A stretch of 10,751 nt of DNA from a virus. A program made the position numbers and the translations under genes. The stretch is from UHGV virus genome UHGV-1843114. The stretch is one strand, 5' to 3'. Below are positions 2,487 through 10,751 of this stretch, one piece after another. The notes under the pieces are model-generated. The model ran no database searches. It was not told the DNA's origin and saw nothing but the letters and a program-made list of their open reading frames with translations. Within the stretch, counting starts at the first letter, position 1; each line of letters opens with the position of its first letter.

Positions 2487-3287
2487 TTACTTGATAAATC
2501 CTGACGCCTTTCCCCGCCTGTATTCCTCCATCAGCCACTGCGCCGGTGTTATTCCCCCAAGGGTGGCGGCGTTAGGCATGCACCCGAAACTTCGCCCTGG
2601 TGGATGGTAAACATCTCTCCCTGTGTCCGGAGGCGTACTCATGGGTTCTGGCTTTGCCTGTATGCTGATCACCGGATCGGGTATCTGCTGTCCGGAAGCC
2701 ACCTTTTTCGCCCAATCATCGAGCAGCCTGCGCGCGTGTTTCTCAACCTCAATCTCGCTAAGCTGGCGCTGATACATTGCACGGCGGGTATCACATACGA
2801 CCCAGTACATAACCGGATGTCGCCACGGGAATCTTTCGGGACCACCAGGATATAAACTTTTTTCCTTGCTGTACCGGTGAAACTCCGCCATCACATCGTC
2901 AATGGTGACGCCAAGAACCATCTTGCTGTCTTTACACCACTTGATGAATTGCCCTGGCGACGGCCAGAACGGAGACTCACTGGCGCGGGCGTGGCGCATA
3001 CCAGCAGAAACCTGTTCACGGGTTCGGATCCCCCCTTCGGCAAACGCAGCAATCCACTGCTGTTTTGCAGCAACTTCCTGCTCTGGCGTCTTCAGGTTGG
3101 TTACCACTGCCGCCGGAAACAGTTGTTTCAGCTGTTTGAAAAGGGCATCAACAAGCCTCTCTGCTGACATGTTCACCACGTTGTCATTGTTGGTGTACTG
3201 ATGCTCATAACCTGACATGCGAGAAAGGGCTTCTCCGTCACGGTTTTGTATCGCGGTAAAAACGTTGTTCACAAGAAATCCTCCCAT
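2487..3287 (-). CDS. Replication protein P-like (DnaB helicase loader)
   Basis: 266-aa ORF. By-eye alignment to lambda P from memory: ...QLFPAAV... / ...ATFPASL..., ...EGGIRTREQVSAGMRHAR... / ...ENGITTMEQVNAGMRVAR..., ...PFWPSPGQFIKWCKD... / ...PFLPSPGQFVAWCRE.... Start is uncertain: the ATG at 3285-3287 overlaps the O-like gene's 3' end; alternative ATGs at 3216-3218 and 3168-3170. Confidence 0.8.
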   Translation of the reverse strand: MGGFLVNNVFTAIQNRDGEALSRMSGYEHQYTNNDNVVNMSAERLVDALFKQLKQLFPAAVVTNLKTPEQEVAAKQQWIAAFAEGGIRTREQVSAGMRHARASESPFWPSPGQFIKWCKDSKMVLGVTIDDVMAEFHRYSKEKSLYPGGPERFPWRHPVMYWVVCDTRRAMYQRQLSEIEVEKHARRLLDDWAKKVASGQQIPDPVISIQAKPEPMSTPPDTGRDVYHPPGRSFGCMPNAATLGGITPAQWLMEEYRRGKASGFIK

Positions 3288-4084
3288 GCTTCAGGGCTGT
3301 TCCAGTGCGGAACGTTGTTATCAGGTAATGTTGATTGCTTCTGTCTGCTAATCTGCAGCCGCCTTGCCAGCTTCTGCTCCCACTGTGCCTGATGGTATGC
3401 CTTACCCTCAGCCATCCAGTAAATTCTGAACTCTGCAAGTTCCTGTGCCGTTGGCAGACTGTCCAGGTAGATCCCCTGCAATGAGCTTTTCCGAAGAAAG
3501 TCATCTGATGGCTGCCATTGTTCATGCATGACAAATTTGCCTAATTGCCCTGGCCCACCAGGAGGAACAAAGTTATTCATCACGGCGTTGTTTGCGCCGG
3601 GGTCATGATGCACAGAATCCCCGTTTTTTGTCCTGCTCTCCCTCTCTTGGTTAAATGACTGGTTATATGACTGGTTCTGGATCCCGTTTTTGGGATCATT
3701 CAACATCCCGTTTTTGGGATCATTCAACATCCCGTTTTTGGGTATATTCCCGTTTTCGGTAACATTACCGTTTTCGGGTTCATTGCCCCCCTCTCGGTTG
3801 CCTTTAATGTTCCCGTTTTTGGTTATATTAAGAGAGAAAACCCGCACTCTTTTTGTCGCTCCCTTTCTCTCCCCGGTATCTGAAATAAGCCCCATTTTCA
3901 TGAGCGATATAAGTCCGGCCTGCACGGTTTTTTTATTCAGGCAAGTGTCTTTAACGAGGCGTTCTATGCTGGGGTAGCAGAGGTTATATTCATCGGCTCT
4001 GTCAGCCATCGAGAGCAGTATGAGCTTTAATGACGAGCTACCTGGATCTGTCTCCCAGGCCCAATCTGTTGCATGTCTGCTCAT
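3269..4084 (-). CDS. Replication initiator (O-like position): N-terminal HTH domain, iteron-encoded Asn/Gly-rich linker, DnaT-like C-terminal region
   Basis: 271-aa ORF, SD GGAG 9 nt upstream of the ATG at 4082-4084. N-terminus MSRHATDWAWETDPGSSSLKLILLSMADRADEYNLCYPSIERLVKDTCLNKKTVQAGLISLMKMGLI matches the HTH pattern of phage replication initiators (memory). Sits immediately upstream of the P-like gene and contains the iteron array. Confidence 0.8.
   Translation of the reverse strand: MSRHATDWAWETDPGSSSLKLILLSMADRADEYNLCYPSIERLVKDTCLNKKTVQAGLISLMKMGLISDTGERKGATKRVRVFSLNITKNGNIKGNREGGNEPENGNVTENGNIPKNGMLNDPKNGMLNDPKNGIQNQSYNQSFNQERESRTKNGDSVHHDPGANNAVMNNFVPPGGPGQLGKFVMHEQWQPSDDFLRKSSLQGIYLDSLPTAQELAEFRIYWMAEGKAYHQAQWEQKLARRLQISRQKQSTLPDNNVPHWNSPEAWEDFL
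3618..3830. repeat. Putative origin of replication: iteron array inside the initiator gene
   Basis: Seven copies of the core tCCCGTTTT(T)GG, starting near 3618, 3681, 3705, 3729, 3748, 3765 and 3810; three are exact 24-bp tandem units ATCCCGTTTTTGGGATCATTCAAC. Also a 10-bp tandem ATGACTGGTT at 3655-3664 and 3667-3676. Same layout as lambda ori inside gene O. Confidence 0.65.
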
Positions 4085-4099
4085 GATTAATCTCCGCTA

Positions 4100-4300
4100 T
4101 CAGCTTGAATGTTGTGGGGAGGAATTAATCATGATCTGCTTAATCTCTGCCCTGATACGACGGTTTGATTCCATGGTGCACTCAACACAGTGTCCGTTGT
4201 AAACCCAGCGTTCACTGTCATGTCCGTGCTTACATGTTTTTCCGGTGTAGTAGCGTTTAAGTCCGCGCTTTGCGGCATCAATACGTGTAATGATTTCCAT
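4100..4300 (-). CDS. Small putative zinc-binding protein (66 aa) at the cII position
   Basis: ATG at 4298-4300 with AGGG about 6 nt upstream. MEIITRIDAAKRGLKRYYTGKTCKHGHDSERWVYNGHCVECTMESNRRIRAEIKQIMINSSPQHSS contains C-x-H-x-H...H-C-x-x-C. The ORF track extends it to a TTG at 4363, which I consider less likely. Confidence 0.55.
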   Translation of the reverse strand: MEIITRIDAAKRGLKRYYTGKTCKHGHDSERWVYNGHCVECTMESNRRIRAEIKQIMINSSPQHSS

Positions 4301-4379
4301 GGTAAGCCCTGTTATTAGTATTGGGATTACGGTCATTTTGTGCTGACACAAAAAAAAGATCAACCAGATTTGGTTTTTT

Positions 4380-4396
4380 ATTACCTTTGAGGTACG
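4380..4396. promoter_or_regulatory. Operator-like site ATTACC-tttga-GGTACg between the terminator and the Zn-ribbon gene
   Basis: Left half-site perfect, right half-site 4 of 6. Same motif family as the repressor/cro intergenic sites. Confidence 0.4.
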
Positions 4397-4409
4397 AATA
4401 GATATGAAA

Positions 4410-4429
4410 AGACCGCCGGATGGCGGTCT
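4410..4429 (-). terminator. Intrinsic terminator downstream of the cro-like gene (tR1-like position)
   Basis: Perfect 8-bp stem AGACCGCC / GGCGGTCT with a 4-nt loop. On the minus strand it is followed by TTTTCATATC. No T-run follows it on the plus strand. Confidence 0.6.
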
Positions 4430-4450
4430 ACAGAGGGTTGTGGCTGGATA

Positions 4451-4681
4451 TCATGAGTAGAAGAAGTATGCCAGTTCTGCTTTTGAGCGCAGCCATTGTC
4501 TTGTTTTACAGGCTTTAAAAAGCCCATTCATCAATACCTTACCTGGCATTTTGCGCTTACCTGTTAAGTGAGTCTGGATATAGTGACTCGTCGTTCCGGC
4601 TTCCTGTGCGAAGGCTTCACGCTCATCCGGAGTAAGTGCAAGCCAGTGCTTTTTGAAATCGAAATGTCCGTTATCGCTCAT
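4451..4681 (-). CDS. Cro-like small HTH DNA-binding protein
   Basis: 76-aa ORF transcribed divergently from the repressor gene, with three operator copies in the shared intergenic region. Putative HTH around ...EAFAQEAGTTSHYIQTHLTGKRKMP.... Family assignment is tentative. Confidence 0.7.
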   Translation of the reverse strand: MSDNGHFDFKKHWLALTPDEREAFAQEAGTTSHYIQTHLTGKRKMPGKVLMNGLFKACKTRQWLRSKAELAYFFYS

Positions 4682-4716
4682 AGCTATTGCCTGATATTTA
4701 TTTCAGATAATAAATA

Positions 4717-4781
4717 TTCACCCATAAGGTAACAAAAATCAAGGATAGTTACCTATGAGGTGCATTTACCTGTTGGGTAAT
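4717..4781. promoter_or_regulatory. OR-like tripartite operator and divergent promoter region between the cro-like and repressor genes
   Basis: Three copies of the 17-bp motif: 4717-4733 tTCACC-cataa-GGTAAc, 4748-4764 gTTACC-tatga-GGTGCa, 4765-4781 tTTACC-tgttg-GGTAAT. A candidate minus-strand -35 TTGATT lies at 4736-4741 (read on the minus strand) with the first site in its spacer. Confidence 0.65.
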
Positions 4782-4835
4782 ATTGCTTTAAATTGAATCA
4801 TCTACTGATTCATATATGAGGCGATTTTCCAGAAA

Positions 4836-5420
4836 ATGAAAAGTATCCAGGACGTCCGCAGGCAAAATCTCAACGACTTGATCGACCGTGAATTCAATGG
4901 TGTTCAGACGCGGATGGCAGAAAAACTTGGAACTCAGGCAAATCTGGTAAACCGCTGGGCTCTTGGCAAGAAGGTTATCGGCGACCAGGTTGCACGAAAA
5001 ATTGAAGCTGCCGCCAATAAACCCCGTAACTGGCTTGATATTGATCGTTCGCTTTCTCAGGAGGGTTTTCAGCCTGTCGGCCCGAGCGATATAGGTCAGC
5101 TGGCGGCTCACAACCTGGAACGCTGGATGAGCGAAAGCCGCGACCTTTCAACACAGGGAAAACTTCACCGCGCATCCGGCGTCGCCCAGGTGACAATCAG
5201 CCGCCTGTTAAACAATGAGGTCAGCGTTTCCATTTCCACTCTGGAGAATGTTGCATCCGCATTCGGGCGTCACGGATATGAACTACTGATTCACCCGCAC
5301 GACCCTGCGACTATCAACTATGACCGCTCACGCTACGCATTGTTACCCGAAACCGAGAAAGCAAAGATCGAAAGTTACATTGAATTTGTCATCAACCAGA
5401 ACGAAAAAAGCAAACAATAA
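4836..5420 (+). CDS. Prophage immunity repressor (CI-like position), two HTH motifs, no LexA/S24-type autocleavage domain
   Basis: 194-aa ORF divergent from the cro-like gene. HTH-like segments QTRMAEKLGTQANLVNRWALGKK and ASGVAQVTISRLLNNEVSVS. No Ala-Gly/Cys-Gly cleavage site with a downstream Ser...Lys dyad was seen. Followed by a strong terminator. Confidence 0.75.
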   Translation: MKSIQDVRRQNLNDLIDREFNGVQTRMAEKLGTQANLVNRWALGKKVIGDQVARKIEAAANKPRNWLDIDRSLSQEGFQPVGPSDIGQLAAHNLERWMSESRDLSTQGKLHRASGVAQVTISRLLNNEVSVSISTLENVASAFGRHGYELLIHPHDPATINYDRSRYALLPETEKAKIESYIEFVINQNEKSKQ

Positions 5421-5440
5421 AACTATAGTTTTCAGTAAGT

Positions 5441-5466
5441 AAGCCGCCTCATGGCGGCTTTTTTAT
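5441..5466 (+). terminator. Rho-independent terminator of the repressor transcript
   Basis: Perfect 8-bp stem AAGCCGCC / GGCGGCTT, loop TCAT, followed by TTTTTTATT. Begins 21 nt after the repressor stop (TAA at 5418-5420). Confidence 0.75.
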
Positions 5467-5476
5467 TGCCAGATAG

Positions 5477-5555
5477 ATTACCTTGCGGGTAATTTTTTTA
5501 ACTCATATCTATTGACACCAAACCAAATAAGCATAATTATTACCTCAACGGTAAC
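5477..5555. promoter_or_regulatory. OL/pL-like region: two operator copies flanking a promoter
   Basis: Sites at 5477-5493 ATTACC-ttgcg-GGTAAT (perfect) and 5539-5555 ATTACC-tcaac-GGTAAc. Consensus -35 TTGACA at 5512-5517, with an AT-rich -10 candidate (AATTAT at 5535-5540, 17-bp spacer) partly overlapping the second site. Confidence 0.55.
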
Positions 5556-5573
5556 AGACCGAGGTAACAAGTT

Positions 5574-5726
5574 ATGCAGTGGAAAATCATCAACGGTTGG
5601 TACTGCGTTACTGCATGCGGATTCATGAGCTGGAAGTTCCGCACCTTACAGGAAGGCATTAAGTGGGCTTTCGTCAGCAAAGAAGCTCGCGATGTAGCCA
5701 ACGATAACGAGATATGGGAGGGCTGA
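5574..5726 (+). CDS. Small hypothetical protein (50 aa), first ORF of the early-left operon
   Basis: ATG at 5574 with SD GAGG about 9 nt upstream; translation MQWKIINGWYCVTACGFMSWKFRTLQEGIKWAFVSKEARDVANDNEIWEG; stop TGA at 5724-5726. Below the ORF-track length cutoff; found by manual translation. Confidence 0.4.
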   Translation: MQWKIINGWYCVTACGFMSWKFRTLQEGIKWAFVSKEARDVANDNEIWEG

Positions 5727-5728
5727 TA

Positions 5729-6028
5729 ATGAACGTTAATCAGCAGAAAAATCTTCAAAAAATCATGCTGGCATTCGACAAGGACTACCGCCTGTCAGAA
5801 CAGCTATATGACCGACAAGTTGAACTGATTGAGAGCATCCGACTTCATCAACTGTCCTCAACTTTCGACGTTGTAACAGGCAAAGGCGTTCGTCAGGAAG
5901 TGCTGGAGGCTGCTAAAGACAGCCCTGAGTTCGAAGAACTGATGGATTCCTACCGGCGCGAGGCAATGGCAATTATCGCCCGCTGGGATCTGGCGGATCG
6001 GATTGATGGGCAGAGGGAAGCGGCATGA
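5729..6028 (+). CDS. Hypothetical protein (99 aa) upstream of the exonuclease
   Basis: ATG at 5729 with SD GGGAGG 7 nt upstream; preferred over the track's 5714 start. Stop overlaps the exonuclease start (ATGATG at 6025-6030). No family recognised. Confidence 0.7.
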   Translation: MNVNQQKNLQKIMLAFDKDYRLSEQLYDRQVELIESIRLHQLSSTFDVVTGKGVRQEVLEAAKDSPEFEELMDSYRREAMAIIARWDLADRIDGQREAA

Positions 6029-6924
6029 TGCAGAACGCTGGAATCATGGATAGAACAAAATACATCGGAGGAAGCGATGTTGCAGGGATTCTTGGAATTA
6101 GCCCATGGCGCACCCCGCTTGAGGTTTATCTGGATAAGGTCCAGCCACGTGTCAAACCAGTAGACCCAAGCAAGCAGAAAGTTTTCACGCGTGGCCAGCG
6201 TATGGAGCCATACGTAATAGACCTGCTTTCTGAGGAAACAGGGATGGAAATCGTTCATCGCGGAAACCGCTATATCCACCGTGATTACGATTTTATTGCA
6301 GCTGAGATCGATGCAGAAGCAGCGTCAGGCGAGAACATTGAGATCAAAACAGTTAGTCCGTTCAAAGCCAAAGAATGGGGAGAAATCCAGACAGATGCAA
6401 TTCCTGTGCATTACACGGCCCAGGCCATGCACGGGTTGATGGTTACAAACAAACAGGTATGCGTTTTCGGTGTGCTTATCGGTGGCGACGACTTCCGAAT
6501 CTATCGGGTTGAGCGTGATGAAGAAACTATCCAGGCGATCTTAGAAAAAGAAATCGCTTTCTGGGACCGAGTGAAAAATCTTAACCCGCCGGAAGCTACC
6601 AGCGTAAGCGATGTATCGCTGATGTTTGAGAAAGATGCAGGGACAAGTATCGAGGCTGACGGAAAGGCACTCGCACTATTCAACGATCTACGAGACATGA
6701 AGTCACGCAGAAAATCACTGGAAGAAGAAATAGCTATATCAGAAGAGAAGCTGAAGATGTACATGCAAGAGCACTCAGTCCTGACCCTGGACGGAAAGCC
6801 GCTCTGCACATGGAAATCTCAGATCAGCAACAGATTCGACCAGAAGCTATTCCAGTCAGTACACCCTGAGTTATTCGAAAAATTCAAAACAACAACGACA
6901 CAACGCGTCTTCAGAATGAAGTAA
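6025..6924 (+). CDS. YqaJ-type viral exonuclease (lambda Exo-like recombination exonuclease)
   Basis: Motifs ...YIGGSDVAGILGISPWRTPLEVY... and ...IEIKTVSPFKAKEWGE...VHYTAQAMHGLMVTNK...FWDRV... match the YqaJ-like PD-(D/E)XK recombinase family (memory). Directly upstream of recT. Start is 6025 or 6028 (or 6046). Confidence 0.85.
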   Translation: MMQNAGIMDRTKYIGGSDVAGILGISPWRTPLEVYLDKVQPRVKPVDPSKQKVFTRGQRMEPYVIDLLSEETGMEIVHRGNRYIHRDYDFIAAEIDAEAASGENIEIKTVSPFKAKEWGEIQTDAIPVHYTAQAMHGLMVTNKQVCVFGVLIGGDDFRIYRVERDEETIQAILEKEIAFWDRVKNLNPPEATSVSDVSLMFEKDAGTSIEADGKALALFNDLRDMKSRRKSLEEEIAISEEKLKMYMQEHSVLTLDGKPLCTWKSQISNRFDQKLFQSVHPELFEKFKTTTTQRVFRMK

Positions 6925-6933
6925 GGAGAAAAA

Positions 6934-7956
6934 ATGTCTATCAATGCACTTAAGGCAGCGGCTACCGGTAACCAAGTTGCACATCATAATGAGAAACCAA
7001 CAACTCTGGCCGGACTTCTGGCAGACCCAAAAATTAAAGCTCAGATGGCTTTGGCACTTCCAAAGCACATGACAGCAGACCGTCTGGCGCGCATAGCAAC
7101 CACAGAGATCCGAAAGGTTCCAAAACTTGCATCATGCGACCAAGCCAGCTTCCTGGGGGCAATTATGCAATGTGCCCAATTGGGTCTTGAACCAGGCGGA
7201 GCTCTTGGACACGCTTACCTGATACCGTTCGACAAACGCCAGAAAGTAAATGGAAGATGGGAAACCGTATCTACAGAAGCACAGCTGATTATCGGCTATC
7301 GCGGAATGATTGACCTTGCCCGCCGCTCTGGGCAGATCCTGAGTATCTCGGCTCGTACCGTACATACAAACGACAAATTCAGCTACTCATACGGCCTGGA
7401 AGAAACGCTCGAGCATTTACCTTGCGAAACAGGTGACCGCGGAGAATTAACGCACGTTTACGCCGTTGCACGACTGAAAGATGGCGGAGTCCAATTTGAA
7501 GTTATGAGCCGGGCAGACATTGAGAAAGTTCGTGCACTGAGCAAAGCCGGTAGCAGTGGCCCATGGGTTGATCACTTCGATGAGATGGCTAAAAAAACAG
7601 TAATTCGCCGACTATTCAAATATCTTCCTGTTTCTATTGAAATGCAGAAGGCTGTTGTTATGGATGAGCGCGCTGAAGCTGGACTTAGCCAAGATAACGC
7701 AGCTGTTATCACTGGTGAATATTCCGTAGTTGACGATGAGCGTCAACACCTGTCGCCAATTTCAGATTCAGAACGAGAAGAAGCTCGAGAATATATCATC
7801 GCGATACTTAATAGCCTGGATCCATCTGCTGAAGATGCAAAAACGATGTTCAAGCGCGCTGAAAATGAGATTAACACCATGGCTGAAAAGCTCGGTGATG
7901 AATATCACCAAAAATTCATGATGACGCTTAACGATATGCGTCCAGAATTCGAGTAA
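6934..7956 (+). CDS. recT: RecT-family single-strand annealing recombinase
   Basis: 340-aa ORF with SD AAGGAG 7 nt upstream. RecT-like segments ...GHAYLIPFDKRQKVNGRWET...LIIGYRGMIDLARRSGQ.... Paired with the YqaJ-type exonuclease. Confidence 0.9.
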   Translation: MSINALKAAATGNQVAHHNEKPTTLAGLLADPKIKAQMALALPKHMTADRLARIATTEIRKVPKLASCDQASFLGAIMQCAQLGLEPGGALGHAYLIPFDKRQKVNGRWETVSTEAQLIIGYRGMIDLARRSGQILSISARTVHTNDKFSYSYGLEETLEHLPCETGDRGELTHVYAVARLKDGGVQFEVMSRADIEKVRALSKAGSSGPWVDHFDEMAKKTVIRRLFKYLPVSIEMQKAVVMDERAEAGLSQDNAAVITGEYSVVDDERQHLSPISDSEREEAREYIIAILNSLDPSAEDAKTMFKRAENEINTMAEKLGDEYHQKFMMTLNDMRPEFE

Positions 7957-8005: not shown

Positions 8006-8254
8006 ATGAAAGGTGCATTAGGTAAGAAGGAACTCCTGGCGGTGGTGCCACTGTCATGGAGCACTATCGACCGTATGGAGCGCGCAGGTGAATTTCCTAA
8101 ACGCTGGTATATCACTGACAAACGCTGCGCATGGAACCGTGACGAAGTTGAGCGTTGGCTTGATGAACGTCAGGCAGCAAGCCCGGCAGAGTTCCAGGGT
8201 AAAAAGCCTCCTGTTCAGCAACGTGTATATCGTCCTGTGAGCAACGCTGCATGA
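8006..8254 (+). CDS. AlpA-family phage regulatory protein / excisionase-like HTH protein
   Basis: 82-aa ORF with SD AGAGAGG. ...LSWSTIDRMERAGEFPKRWYITDKRCAWNRDEVERWL... matches the AlpA/Xis-type pattern (memory). This family is typically found near P4-type integrases. Confidence 0.8.
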   Translation: MKGALGKKELLAVVPLSWSTIDRMERAGEFPKRWYITDKRCAWNRDEVERWLDERQAASPAEFQGKKPPVQQRVYRPVSNAA

Positions 8255-8363: not shown

Positions 8364-8663
8364 GTGAGAAAGTTAAGCCGACTTGAAAAATATCACATGA
8401 ACAAGGTTTCAATGCGCAGTCCGTCAAAGATTGTCGCCGTTACTCCTGCGGCGATAGAGATCGAAAAACGCGCGATTGAAAGAGAGAAAAAAGGGCAGTT
8501 CCGCATTGCCGCTCACCTTTGGCTTCAGTGTATGGATGTTGCTTCTGGTGATGTTGAGCGTGCAAGGATCGCGGTTCGCAGGGACCAATGTATCACAAAA
8601 GGTAACGGCCTTCGCCGTGGAGACTATAGCGGTATAGGATGTTGCGGGGTGGTTTATGACTAA
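8364..8663 (+). CDS. Small regulator, ANR-like (AraC negative regulator family) candidate
   Basis: ORF with uncertain start (GTG 8364, ATG 8397 or ATG 8415). ...FRIAAHLWLQCMDVASGDVERARIAVRRDQC... fits the ANR-family pattern as I remember it. Its 3' end overlaps the methyltransferase start by 8 nt. Confidence 0.5.
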   Translation: MRKLSRLEKYHMNKVSMRSPSKIVAVTPAAIEIEKRAIEREKKGQFRIAAHLWLQCMDVASGDVERARIAVRRDQCITKGNGLRRGDYSGIGCCGVVYD

Positions 8664-9306
8664 GAAATACACACTAATCTATGCAGATCCACCCTGGGTA
8701 TACCGGGACAAAGCCGCAGATGGTAATCGCGGTGCCGGTTTTAAATATCCGGTTATGAGTGTGCTGGATATCTGCCGCCTTCCTGTGTGGGATTTGGCCG
8801 ATGAAAACTGTCTGTTGGCCATGTGGTGGGTGCCAACACAACCACTCGAAGCACTAAAAGTTGTTGAAACCTGGGGATTCCGTCTGATGACGATGAAGGG
8901 CTTCACGTGGATAAAATGTGGTAGTCGACAACCAGATAAACTGGTTATGGGTATGGGACACATGACTCGCGCCAATAGTGAAGATTGCCTGTTTGCGGTA
9001 AAGGGAAAACTACCTACGCGCATTAATGCAGGGATCGTTTAGTCATTTACCGCACCGCGGCTTGAGCATTCAAGAAAGCCAGATATCGTTCGTGAAAAAC
9101 TTGTGCAATTATTAGGCGATGTTTCTCGCATTGAACTGTTCGCCCGCCAGACGTCTCATGGCTTCGATGTTTGGGGTAATCAGTGCGAAGACCCGGCAGT
9201 GCAACTACACCCTGGATACGCGTTGGATATTGGCGGATTAACAAATGCATTCAGCAATGCTCCGCTGTCACCAACAGACAACCAGGGGCGGGAGCGTGCT
9301 GCATGA
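8656..9306 (+). pseudogene. MT-A70-family DNA N6-adenine methyltransferase interrupted by a single in-frame TAG at 9040-9042
   Basis: The N-terminal ORF (8656-9042) carries the catalytic motif ADPPW. The same frame continues after the TAG as SFTAPRLEHSRKPDIVREKLVQLLGDVSRIELFARQTSHGFDVWGNQ..., which contains the family's conserved HSRKP and ELFAR...WGN motifs, to a stop at 9304-9306. The track splits it into two ORFs in the same frame. Confidence 0.75.
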
Positions 9307-9500: not shown

Positions 9501-10751
9501 TTATTCCCCCGCCATCCACTTCTCAAACTTCGACGGGGAGAACGGAATCAGATCCGTATGCTCCCCGTCAATCCATGAATCAATCATATCGGCCCACTGC
9601 TGCAACATGTAGGCGCGCTGTCTGGCGTATTCCGCTTTGTTATATACGGCGCGCACACCTTTCTGCTCATGTGCCAGAGCCTTTTCAATCCAGTCTGAAG
9701 GATAACCAGCCTCATGCAACAACGTACTGGCTGTACGGCGCATATCATGTACAGTGAAGTCCTGAATATGCTCACCATCTTCATTTATTATTTTCACCGT
9801 TCTGTCGATCAGAGAGTTCAGCGCGGCATTAGATAATGGCTTCCGGAAATTGTAACGACCAGGAACCAGATATTCACTTCCACCAGCGCACATCTGCAAC
9901 CCGACCAATATATCCTGTGCCTGTTTAGGCAGGTAAATAACGTGCGCCCGGCTTCCCTTCATGCGGTCTGGAGGAATTGTCCATGTCCATTTTTTAAAAT
10001 CTATTTCATCCCACGTTGCATTGGTGAATTCGCCCTTACGAACCATAGTGATAAGCACCAGTTTTAAAGCCATTTTCATAGTGCCCATAGCACCAATGGC
10101 ATCCAGCGTGCGGAAGAACAGGCCAATTTCTTCTGGTGTCAGTGTTCGCTCTCGTGGTTTAAATATGGCGATAGACGAAGGTTTAATGTCAGCCGCAGGA
10201 TTAAACAAACCATGACCACGGTCATTGGCGTGACGGTATACGCTACTGATGATCTCCCTGGCCTGCACTGCTGTTGCCCGGCCACCGCGTTCGACAATCC
10301 GGTCACACAAATCACGAACCATCGATGTGGTAATTTCAGCCATCATTTTATTGCCAAGAACCGGAAGTATGTCACGGTCGATCACCGCCTGTTTCATTGC
10401 GCGGGTACTGTCAGCCAGGATGACGTGTTTCATATAACTGTCGGTATGTACCGCAAACGTCTCGGCACCACGAATCTTTTTGATACCGTCACGTTTAGCC
10501 GCAGCCGGTGACTGGCCTGCTTTAAGCAGCTTCTTTGCAGCAATCAGTTCTTCTCGCGCTTCTGCCAGGCTGATACCGTCACGCCCATACTGCCCGATTA
10601 CCAGTGTTTCGCGGCGACCGTTGATACGGTAGTCATAGCGAAACGAGACCGTGCCTGACGTAAGCACAGCTACATACAGCCCGTCACGATCGGAGACCTT
10701 GTACAGTTTGTCCTGCGGCTTGAGGTTTTTTAATTTTGTATCGGTAAGCAC
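9501..10751 (-). CDS. int: Tyrosine site-specific integrase, P4-type; N-terminus at or just beyond the right window edge
   Basis: N-terminal ...LTDTKLKNLKPQDKLYKVSDRDGLYVAVLTSGTVSFRYDYRINGRRETL... is the typical P4-family integrase arm domain. C-terminal catalytic signature HDMRRTASTLL ... ALAHE...VRAVYNKAEY (H-x-x-R and the Tyr nucleophile). The frame is open to the last base of the window. Confidence 0.9.
   Translation of the reverse strand: MLTDTKLKNLKPQDKLYKVSDRDGLYVAVLTSGTVSFRYDYRINGRRETLVIGQYGRDGISLAEAREELIAAKKLLKAGQSPAAAKRDGIKKIRGAETFAVHTDSYMKHVILADSTRAMKQAVIDRDILPVLGNKMMAEITTSMVRDLCDRIVERGGRATAVQAREIISSVYRHANDRGHGLFNPAADIKPSSIAIFKPRERTLTPEEIGLFFRTLDAIGAMGTMKMALKLVLITMVRKGEFTNATWDEIDFKKWTWTIPPDRMKGSRAHVIYLPKQAQDILVGLQMCAGGSEYLVPGRYNFRKPLSNAALNSLIDRTVKIINEDGEHIQDFTVHDMRRTASTLLHEAGYPSDWIEKALAHEQKGVRAVYNKAEYARQRAYMLQQWADMIDSWIDGEHTDLIPFSPSKFEKWMAGE

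Follow-up and report, generated by a model that had tools for sequence, protein, structure and literature searches.

A putative SPC32H-type immunity repressor without a recognizable self-cleavage domain in a phiV10/epsilon15-type prophage of Escherichia coli

How is a prophage induced if its immunity repressor carries no recognizable domain for self-cleavage? The question is raised by a 194-residue reading frame (rep, product Rep) in the virus genome UHGV-1843114, whose whole analyzed stretch of 10,751 nucleotides is called the window here. A preliminary description, made from the letters of the DNA, had assigned to this protein two HTH-like segments and no S24 peptidase domain, and had suggested that induction would require a separate antirepressor, as in the Gifsy phages, with no candidate evident in the window. 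It proposed profile searches of the protein and a search for LexA-controlled antirepressor genes elsewhere. The window holds the early/immunity half of a temperate podophage of the phiV10/epsilon15 type (Uetakevirus) in an E. coli-like chromosome, and its features run as follows from the integrase to the opposite end:

9501–10751, minus strand: integrase
8656–9042, plus strand: MT-A70 methylase
8364–8663, plus strand: PerC-like activator
8006–8254, plus strand: AlpA/Xis-like gene
6934–7956, plus strand: RecT
6025–6924, plus strand: YqaJ/RecE-like exonuclease
5574–6028, plus strand: two small genes
4836–5420, plus strand: rep, 194 codons for the putative immunity repressor of the SPC32H-Rep family
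4451–4681, minus strand: cro-like gene of 76 codons, divergent from rep (PHROG 35 'transcriptional repressor', E 5.6e-13)
between the cro-like gene and the DnaT/O-like gene: a small gene
3269–4084, minus strand: DnaT/O-like replication gene
2487–3287, minus strand: lambda-P-like replication gene
beyond the lambda-P-like gene, last in the gene order: accessory genes
1–471: end of an IS10-type element (ISVsa5 family) with the terminal repeat CTGAGAGATCCCCTCATAATTTCCCC, cutting a small phage gene at 471/472

The cro-like gene is, by position, the homologue of phiV10 p41 and epsilon15 gp39, and complete relatives of the prophage are integrated between yfgI and guaA. Another contig with the same gene order (L010) likewise ends inside IS10. 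The IS10 junction of the window is met again, in both orientations, in prophages of unrelated background. A scan of the window against Rfam gave nothing at gathering thresholds.

Two stretches of Rep are matched by the Pfam family HTH_3, the better one at residues 106–147 (E 1.2e-09), where HTH_26 and HTH_31 also fall, and a weaker HTH of the Cro/YdaS type is matched at residues 21–61. PHROG repressor families cover residues 1–75 and 87–152. Peptidase_S24 gave no match in Pfam or NCBIfam at E≤1, and in the same type of search lambda CI, used as a positive control, was matched to Peptidase_S24 at E 6.8e-29. The proposed profile search thus found HTH families and no S24, and both structural claims of the preliminary description are borne out. 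No Ala-Gly or Cys-Gly dipeptide occurs among the 194 residues of Rep. The features that define the LexA/lambda-CI class, an S24 domain with its Ser/Lys dyad and an Ala-Gly or Cys-Gly site in the linker, are therefore both lacking. A single-sequence AlphaFold2 model of Rep was of low quality (mean pLDDT 44.9, pTM 0.22).

A repressor of the LexA/CI or ImmR type would be inactivated by RecA-stimulated self-cleavage or by an ImmA-like metalloprotease, and the place of rep does recall lambda cI: it is divergent from a cro-like gene and shares its strand with the recombination operon. Rep resembles lambda CI and LexA in its role, in its placement with respect to cro and the leftward operon, and in the presence of multiple operators over divergent promoters; it differs from them in the domain and cleavage site just described, and RecA-stimulated autocleavage would not be expected. 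The profile searches, with their working control, and the missing dipeptides led to the rejection of the autocleavage reading, and gene context to that of a partner protease: no ImmA-like (COG2856) metalloprotease lies beside rep, whose neighbors are the cro-like gene and small genes without assigned function, and no peptidase family is among the Pfam families recorded for the genes of contig L010, which has the identical gene set. Moreover, all 194 residues are covered by homology to a crystallized repressor whose chain (5D50_A) is likewise without an S24 signal. A protease-inactivated Rep is thus extremely improbable.

This crystallized protein defines the family to which Rep appears to belong. 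In a phmmer search of PDB sequences, residues 1–190 of Rep align with residues 2–197 of 5D50_A, annotated 'Repressor' (E 3.5e-42, 43% identity), and the C-terminal fragment 5D4Z_A is matched at E 3.6e-20; the alignment with the crystallized homologue begins at residue 1 of Rep, whose N-terminus reads MKSIQDVRR. By GenBank KC911856, the repressor chains of 5D50 and 5D4Z are Rep of Salmonella phage SPC32H, in which the genes are named rep and ant. Identity to SPC32H Rep is 54% in the DNA-binding domain (DBD), 33% in the middle domain and 52% in the C-terminal residues 158–190. In the family alignment, 33 of 70 DBD columns are invariant across four host genera, including NLVNRW, as are 13 of the 33 columns at residues 158–190 (I160, Y162, D163, Y167, L170, P171, E174, K175, K177, I178, F184, Q188 and N189). 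Work on SPC32H Rep and Ant was published by Kim and Ryu in 2013 (J Virol) and by Kim et al. in 2016 (PNAS), and the abstract of the former is said to describe SPC32H Ant as structurally distinct from earlier antirepressors. SPC32H Rep is described as an N-terminal DBD, a middle dimerization domain (MDD) and a C-terminal CAD, the last of which mediates tetramer formation and Ant binding (PMC9986798). By alignment, the corresponding parts of the window protein are predicted to be:

4836–5045, plus strand: N-terminal DNA-binding HTH domain, residues 1–70 (approximate boundary), from the YdaS/Cro-type HTH and PHROG matches; role from PMC9986798
5100–5306, plus strand: middle HTH_3-like domain, residues 89–157 (approximate boundary), corresponding to the SPC32H Rep MDD, from HTH_3 and the alignment to 5D4Z_A; role from PMC9986798
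5307–5417, plus strand: C-terminal segment, residues 158–194 (approximate boundary), corresponding to the SPC32H Rep CAD; role from PMC9986798

The second HTH-like segment noted earlier is real, and its reading is refined: by the description of SPC32H Rep, it would be a dimerization module and not a second DNA-reading head (PMC9986798).

The gene is also present in other E. coli phages. Rep shares 99.5% identity with phiV10 p40 ('putative transcriptional repressor') and 100% with its counterparts in phage HEMP4 and three complete E. coli genomes; with proteins 99.5–100% identical, phiV10 p40, ZX5 ORF21 and the HEMP4 gene are this very gene in phages of the same kind. The immunity region (4300–5800) is 97–98% identical to phiV10, ZX5, PAS61 and other E. 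coli phages and is present in 562 of 5,426 complete E. coli genomes. The current GenBank record of epsilon15 already carries 'HHpred: 5d50_A Repressor' on its repressor gene. Over-expression of the ZX5 repressor, which the study describes as identical in sequence to phiV10 ORF40, left no free phage and brought the transcripts of holin and endolysin down by over 99.9% (PMC9782041). Repressor function of the E. coli protein has been tested by this over-expression in ZX5; the direct experiments on non-cleavage and on Ant concern the Salmonella orthologue, which is 43% identical.

One record, BP9, labels its Rep homologue 'plasmid maintenance system antidote protein VapI', and the NCBIfam models for HigA- and HipB-type antitoxins match Rep weakly, far under their cut-offs. 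Rep might on these grounds be taken for an antitoxin-type HTH protein (HigA/VapI-like) and not a phage repressor, but no toxin partner gene adjoins rep, the gene stands in the immunity position amid operator clusters, and its homologue is an experimentally defined repressor in epsilon15, SPC32H and ZX5. Such an identity is hardly credible, and the toxin–antitoxin reading was discarded on gene context.

The assignment of Rep as an immunity repressor is joined by a set of predicted operators. The palindrome TTACC-N5-GGTAA occurs seven times in the window against 0.2 expected, a count reached in none of 200 shuffles, and all seven are intergenic. The elements read around rep and the early genes are the following (no strand is given for the palindromes):

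4718–4780: putative operator cluster between rep and the divergent cro-like gene, motif TTACC-N5-GGTAA
4718–4732: palindrome with one mismatch (motif scan)
4749–4763: palindrome with two mismatches, read by eye, outside the seven scan matches
4766–4780: perfect palindrome (motif scan)
4735–4707, minus strand: PR-like promoter, overlapping the 4718–4732 palindrome
5478–5554, plus strand: PL-like early-left control region, in which palindromes 5478–5492 and 5540–5554 flank a promoter
5512–5540, plus strand: strong promoter-like site TTGACA-17-AATTAT, reading into the recombination operon
2373–2387 and 2435–2449: palindrome pair, 62 bp apart, upstream of a DUF1064 gene
4381–4395: single palindrome (motif scan)
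5441–5468, plus strand: intrinsic terminator after rep, with an 8-bp stem (six G-C pairs) followed by a T run

The layout is shared with the family. The start-to-start spacings of the palindromes at 4718, 4749 and 4766 are 31 and 17 nt, against 30 and 17 in SPC32H, and the distance from the last palindrome to the rep ATG is 70 nt against 69 nt. Sites equivalent to those at 2373, 2435 and 4381 are found in phiV10 at 35070, 35132 and 33112, and phiV10 has an annotated terminator at the place equivalent to 5441–5468. In SPC32H, epsilon15 and a Klebsiella phage, too, rep stands between copies of the TTACC-N5-GGTAA core, and three epsilon15 sites annotated 'protein_bind: repressor, lysogeny' coincide exactly with motif matches. 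We infer that Rep binds 15–17 bp palindromes of the form (A)TTACC-N5-GGTAA(T). By sequence, architecture, operators and synteny together, the window protein is assigned to the SPC32H Rep family. Its likeness to the SPC32H system (PDB 5D50, 5D4Z) extends over full-length homology, the three-part architecture, the lack of S24, the genome position, the operator core with its layout round rep and, in relatives, an Ant 88% identical behind a LexA box. The differences are the 43% identity of Rep, two strong operators per side in the window and three in SPC32H, the E. coli host, and an extra gene for a Bro-N–Ant fusion in the E. coli relatives.

If Rep is not cleaved, what would remove it from these sites? 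The preliminary description saw no antirepressor in the window, and none was found: tblastn with the Ant of the family returned no Ant-like coding sequence in the window at E≤10, the window holds no exact LexA box (CTGT-N8-ACAG), and its 6 one-mismatch boxes, with 3.8 expected, do not exceed chance. The search for a LexA-box-controlled antirepressor that it had proposed, run in close relatives, led to an 85-residue Ant behind a near-consensus box. This is phiV10 p24, an 85-residue 'hypothetical protein' similar to epsilon15 gp19, which adjoins the tail-fiber gene; its match to 5D50_E, 'Anti-repressor protein', has an E of 2.9e-46 and an identity of 88%. Directly upstream of it stands TACTGTGTATTTATACAGTT, a near-consensus LexA box with 17 of 20 consensus matches. 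The prophages ST95-32 (Rep 99% identical) and FDAARGOS_1303 (rep gene 100%) carry the same Ant (WP_001188252.1), and in ST95-32 the ant gene lies about 27.8 kb from rep and is preceded by TACTGTATAAATATACAGTT. Because ant stands about 28 kb from rep in these relatives, by the tail-fiber gene, its absence from the window is expected.

The arrangement upstream of ant is conserved. In an alignment of upstream regions, the LexA box is kept in E. coli, Salmonella, Enterobacter and Klebsiella phages; a simple promoter scan called no sigma-70-like promoter upstream of ant. All lineages also keep a Rep palindrome, at roughly 40 bp upstream of this box. Across the aligned ant upstream region, SPC32N and SPC32H differ by a single C-to-A change, inside the ACAG half-site. 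The constitutive synthesis of Ant in SPC32N is reportedly put down, in the abstract of Kim and Ryu from 2013, to a mutation in the LexA site, with which the C-to-A change agrees.

The two genes also travel together. Among 50,697 phage records searched with tblastn (Rep at E≤1e-8, Ant at E≤1e-5), Rep was found in 36 and Ant in 35; every record with Ant also holds Rep (35/35), and Rep without Ant occurs only in the atypical 138-kb record BP9. Of 5,426 complete E. coli genomes, 537 hold rep, at 549 places of which 3 are on plasmids, and 529 hold ant, at 546 places, again with 3 on plasmids.

The slight excess of rep over ant in these genomes fits a reading in which the repressor of the window is orphaned, IS10 marking a prophage that was truncated or rearranged and is left without ant and the late genes, so that Rep would provide permanent immunity or superinfection exclusion blind to SOS. 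The IS10-type end does truncate a phage gene, the IS10–phage junction is present in 0 of 5,426 complete E. coli genomes, and an exact-junction scan of the GTDB representatives gave no match. However, a simple IS insertion would spare the rest of the prophage beyond the 1.3-kb element, the genes between int and IS10 are all intact reading frames, the break of a contig at an IS arises from assembly and tells nothing of a deletion, and the presence of the same IS10 junction in other prophage backgrounds suggests a hot spot of insertion and not the end of a deletion. An orphaned repressor therefore seems quite unlikely.

The preferred reading is that Rep is not cleaved during the SOS response and that a small LexA-controlled Ant, encoded outside the window, inactivates it; from the comparative evidence this is judged highly probable. 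Inactivation of the E. coli Rep by Ant would follow from four things: homology, synteny, co-occurrence of Rep and Ant, and the conserved LexA box. In the lysogen, Rep would sit on the palindromes overlapping the divergent PR-like and PL-like promoters, and on those at further phage promoters, and would keep the early operons shut. Upon DNA damage, host LexA would be inactivated and ant derepressed; its 85-residue product would then bind the C-terminal part of Rep, split the tetramer into dimers and take Rep off the DNA. These steps are modeled on SPC32H. According to one source, LexA self-cleavage precedes the synthesis of Ant, which inhibits the repressor through protein–protein interaction and not by cleavage (PMC7380047), and another describes Rep on DNA as a tetramer that is broken when one Ant tetramer binds two Rep dimers (PMC9638917). 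The E. coli pair, whose identity to the Salmonella proteins is 43% for Rep and 88% for Ant, presumably behaves as the SPC32H pair does; the identity of only 33–52% in the Rep domains that contact Ant counts against this reading, as does the lack of a sigma-70-like call upstream of ant. Given the mechanism of the SPC32H family and the LexA-boxed Ant in relatives whose Rep is 99–100% identical, the earlier suggestion that induction proceeds through a separate antirepressor and not through self-cleavage is supported.

The analogy with the Gifsy phages, on which that suggestion had leaned, holds in part. The LexA-controlled antirepressors of the Gifsy phages are said to have been described by Lemire et al. 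in 2011. In logic the two agree, pairing a repressor that is not cleaved with an SOS-controlled antirepressor far from the immunity region, as PMC7380047 has it for Gifsy. No sequence relation to the Gifsy repressors (GfoR, GftR, GfhR) was detected: none of the 35–36 phage records with Rep or Ant is Gifsy-named, as judged by tblastn at E≤1e-8 for Rep and E≤1e-5 for Ant. By the searches run here, Gifsy is probably a functional analogue and not a member of the same family, and the SPC32H family is the closer match. Another parallel is coliphage 186, with an S24-less repressor (CI) and a LexA-repressed antirepressor (Tum), according to the same source, which loosely terms the Salmonella antirepressors 'homologous to Tum' (PMC7380047).

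A second gene of the E. coli relatives, also outside the window, complicates the identity of the inducer. A Bro-N protein of a relative E. coli prophage ends in about 75 residues (150–226) with homology to the Ant chain of 5D50 (E 1e-13); their identity to the small Ant is 42%. In Rfam, the leader of its gene is matched by C4 (77.7 bits), isrK (76.7 bits) and c4-a1b1. Before this leader, a promoter-like site abuts a perfect Rep palindrome, and no LexA box is found at the Bro-N gene of this prophage. The leader recalls immI of P1 and P7, where C4 antisense RNA controls ant; the likeness concerns this second gene and not the repressor. In ZX5, over-expression of the Bro-N protein ORF4 lowered prophage titers about 1000-fold, and ZX5 lysogens spontaneously release 10^7 PFU/mL (PMC9782041).

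On this evidence the main antirepressor of E. coli phiV10-type phages might be the Bro-N protein, under a Rep operator and a C4-type antisense RNA as in P1 immI, with the LexA wiring partial or absent, and Bro-N–Ant may be the more important inducer in E. coli relatives. However, the small ant and its LexA box are kept in every lineage, including the Salmonella phages, whose records hold one Ant-like place each. In phiV10 a frameshift splits the Ant-like part of the Bro-N gene, which is therefore dispensable at least in that phage. The two routes, moreover, are not mutually exclusive. That Bro-N is the main antirepressor is accordingly considered unlikely, and the small LexA-controlled Ant is retained as the probable inducer. 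A scheme that joins both routes is put forward tentatively, as a possibility with the balance still against it: antirepression in E. coli phiV10-type prophages would be two-tiered, with the LexA-gated Ant starting induction, Bro-N–Ant acting as a feed-forward latch and Rep co-repressing ant. The parts of this circuit lie outside the window, and they are not connected in the phiV10 and ZX5 literature examined.

The 'anti-repressor' tested in the ZX5 study is the Bro-N protein and not the small Ant, and SPC32H is uncited there (PMC9782041); this suggests that the study tested a paralogous Bro-N–Ant fusion rather than the conserved LexA-controlled Ant. The preliminary description read the repressor correctly, and what it read is already known, since published phages carry the identical protein and the mechanism of the family was published, with crystal structures, in 2013–2016; with Rep identical or near-identical in HEMP4, phiV10 and ZX5, the discovery value is little. 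The significance lies in annotation: about 10% of complete E. coli genomes (537/5,426) hold rep under the label 'helix-turn-helix domain-containing protein' and nothing further, and ant is labeled 'hypothetical protein'. Transfer of the Rep/Ant annotation would sharpen the prediction of SOS-inducible prophages integrated at guaA.

The 194-aa immunity repressor Rep appears to act on the motif TTACC-N5-GGTAA, and palindromes of this operator type also lie away from the immunity region. In the window, these sites are:

2373-2387 and 2435-2449: two paired operator-type palindromes at a 62-bp spacing, upstream of the DUF1064 gene
4381-4395: single operator-type palindrome after the terminator of the cro-like gene

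The genome of phiV10 carries 14 such palindromes, and every one of them (14 of 14) is intergenic. Together, these sites suggest that Rep regulates further transcription units besides those of the two early promoters. One more site precedes ant, the gene encoding the 85-aa antirepressor, which lies outside the window. In the E. coli ST95-32 prophage (L002), this site is:

L002 8937-8951: Rep-operator palindrome upstream of ant, ATTACC-N5-GGTAAT

An alignment of the regions 5' of ant from eight phages and prophages (A1) shows that this palindrome is kept ~40 bp upstream of the ant LexA box in phages of E. coli, Salmonella, Enterobacter and Klebsiella, and the epsilon15 annotation marks it as a repressor site. 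At this site, Rep may act as a co-repressor of ant, the gene for its own antirepressor, or of the divergent tail-fibre gene.

The phiV10-type phages of E. coli also encode a Bro-N protein ("anti-immunity") whose C-terminal domain is homologous to the small Ant (E = 1e-13 against PDB 5D50_E; 42% identity to the Ant of the same phage):

L002 10671-11366: Bro-N-Ant protein gene
L002 10358-10623: its upstream control region, with promoter-like site, Rep palindrome and RNA leader
phiV10 19551-20230: Bro-N-Ant region, in which a frameshift between p23 and p22 divides the Ant-like part

This domain is probably the reason why the Bro-N ORF4 of E. coli phage ZX5 behaves as an anti-repressor when over-expressed (PMC9782041). 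In the ST95-32 control region, a perfect Rep palindrome directly adjoins the promoter-like site (TTGAAA-18-TATTAT), and the leader 3' of both matches the Rfam families C4 antisense RNA (77.7 bits), isrK (76.7 bits) and c4-a1b1; no LexA box is present in L002 10358-10623. This arrangement is a P1 immI-like control module.

The left end of the window is an insertion junction:

1-471: IS10-type end (ISVsa5 family)
468-638: small phage gene truncated by the IS10-type end

The contigs with this junction all break at it. The truncated gene is suggested to be an IS10 insertion hot spot because the junction recurs at exactly the same nucleotide in other, unrelated prophage contexts (L011 and L012), in one with the IS reversed.

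In ~10% of complete E. coli genomes, RefSeq labels ant a "hypothetical protein" (e.g., L002 9028-9285) and rep only a "helix-turn-helix domain-containing protein" (e.g., L002 36835-37419); the phage BP9 record names rep "plasmid maintenance system antidote protein VapI." Ant is conserved far above its target: E. coli, Salmonella and Enterobacter sequences share 82-98% identity and the Klebsiella sequence 62% with the others (alignment A3), whereas E. coli Rep shares 42-44% with the Salmonella and Klebsiella proteins (alignment A2). The operator core and NLVNRW, the putative recognition-helix motif of Rep, are invariant. Cross-induction between phiV10-type and related Salmonella, Enterobacter and Klebsiella phages seems possible, as perhaps does cross-immunity.
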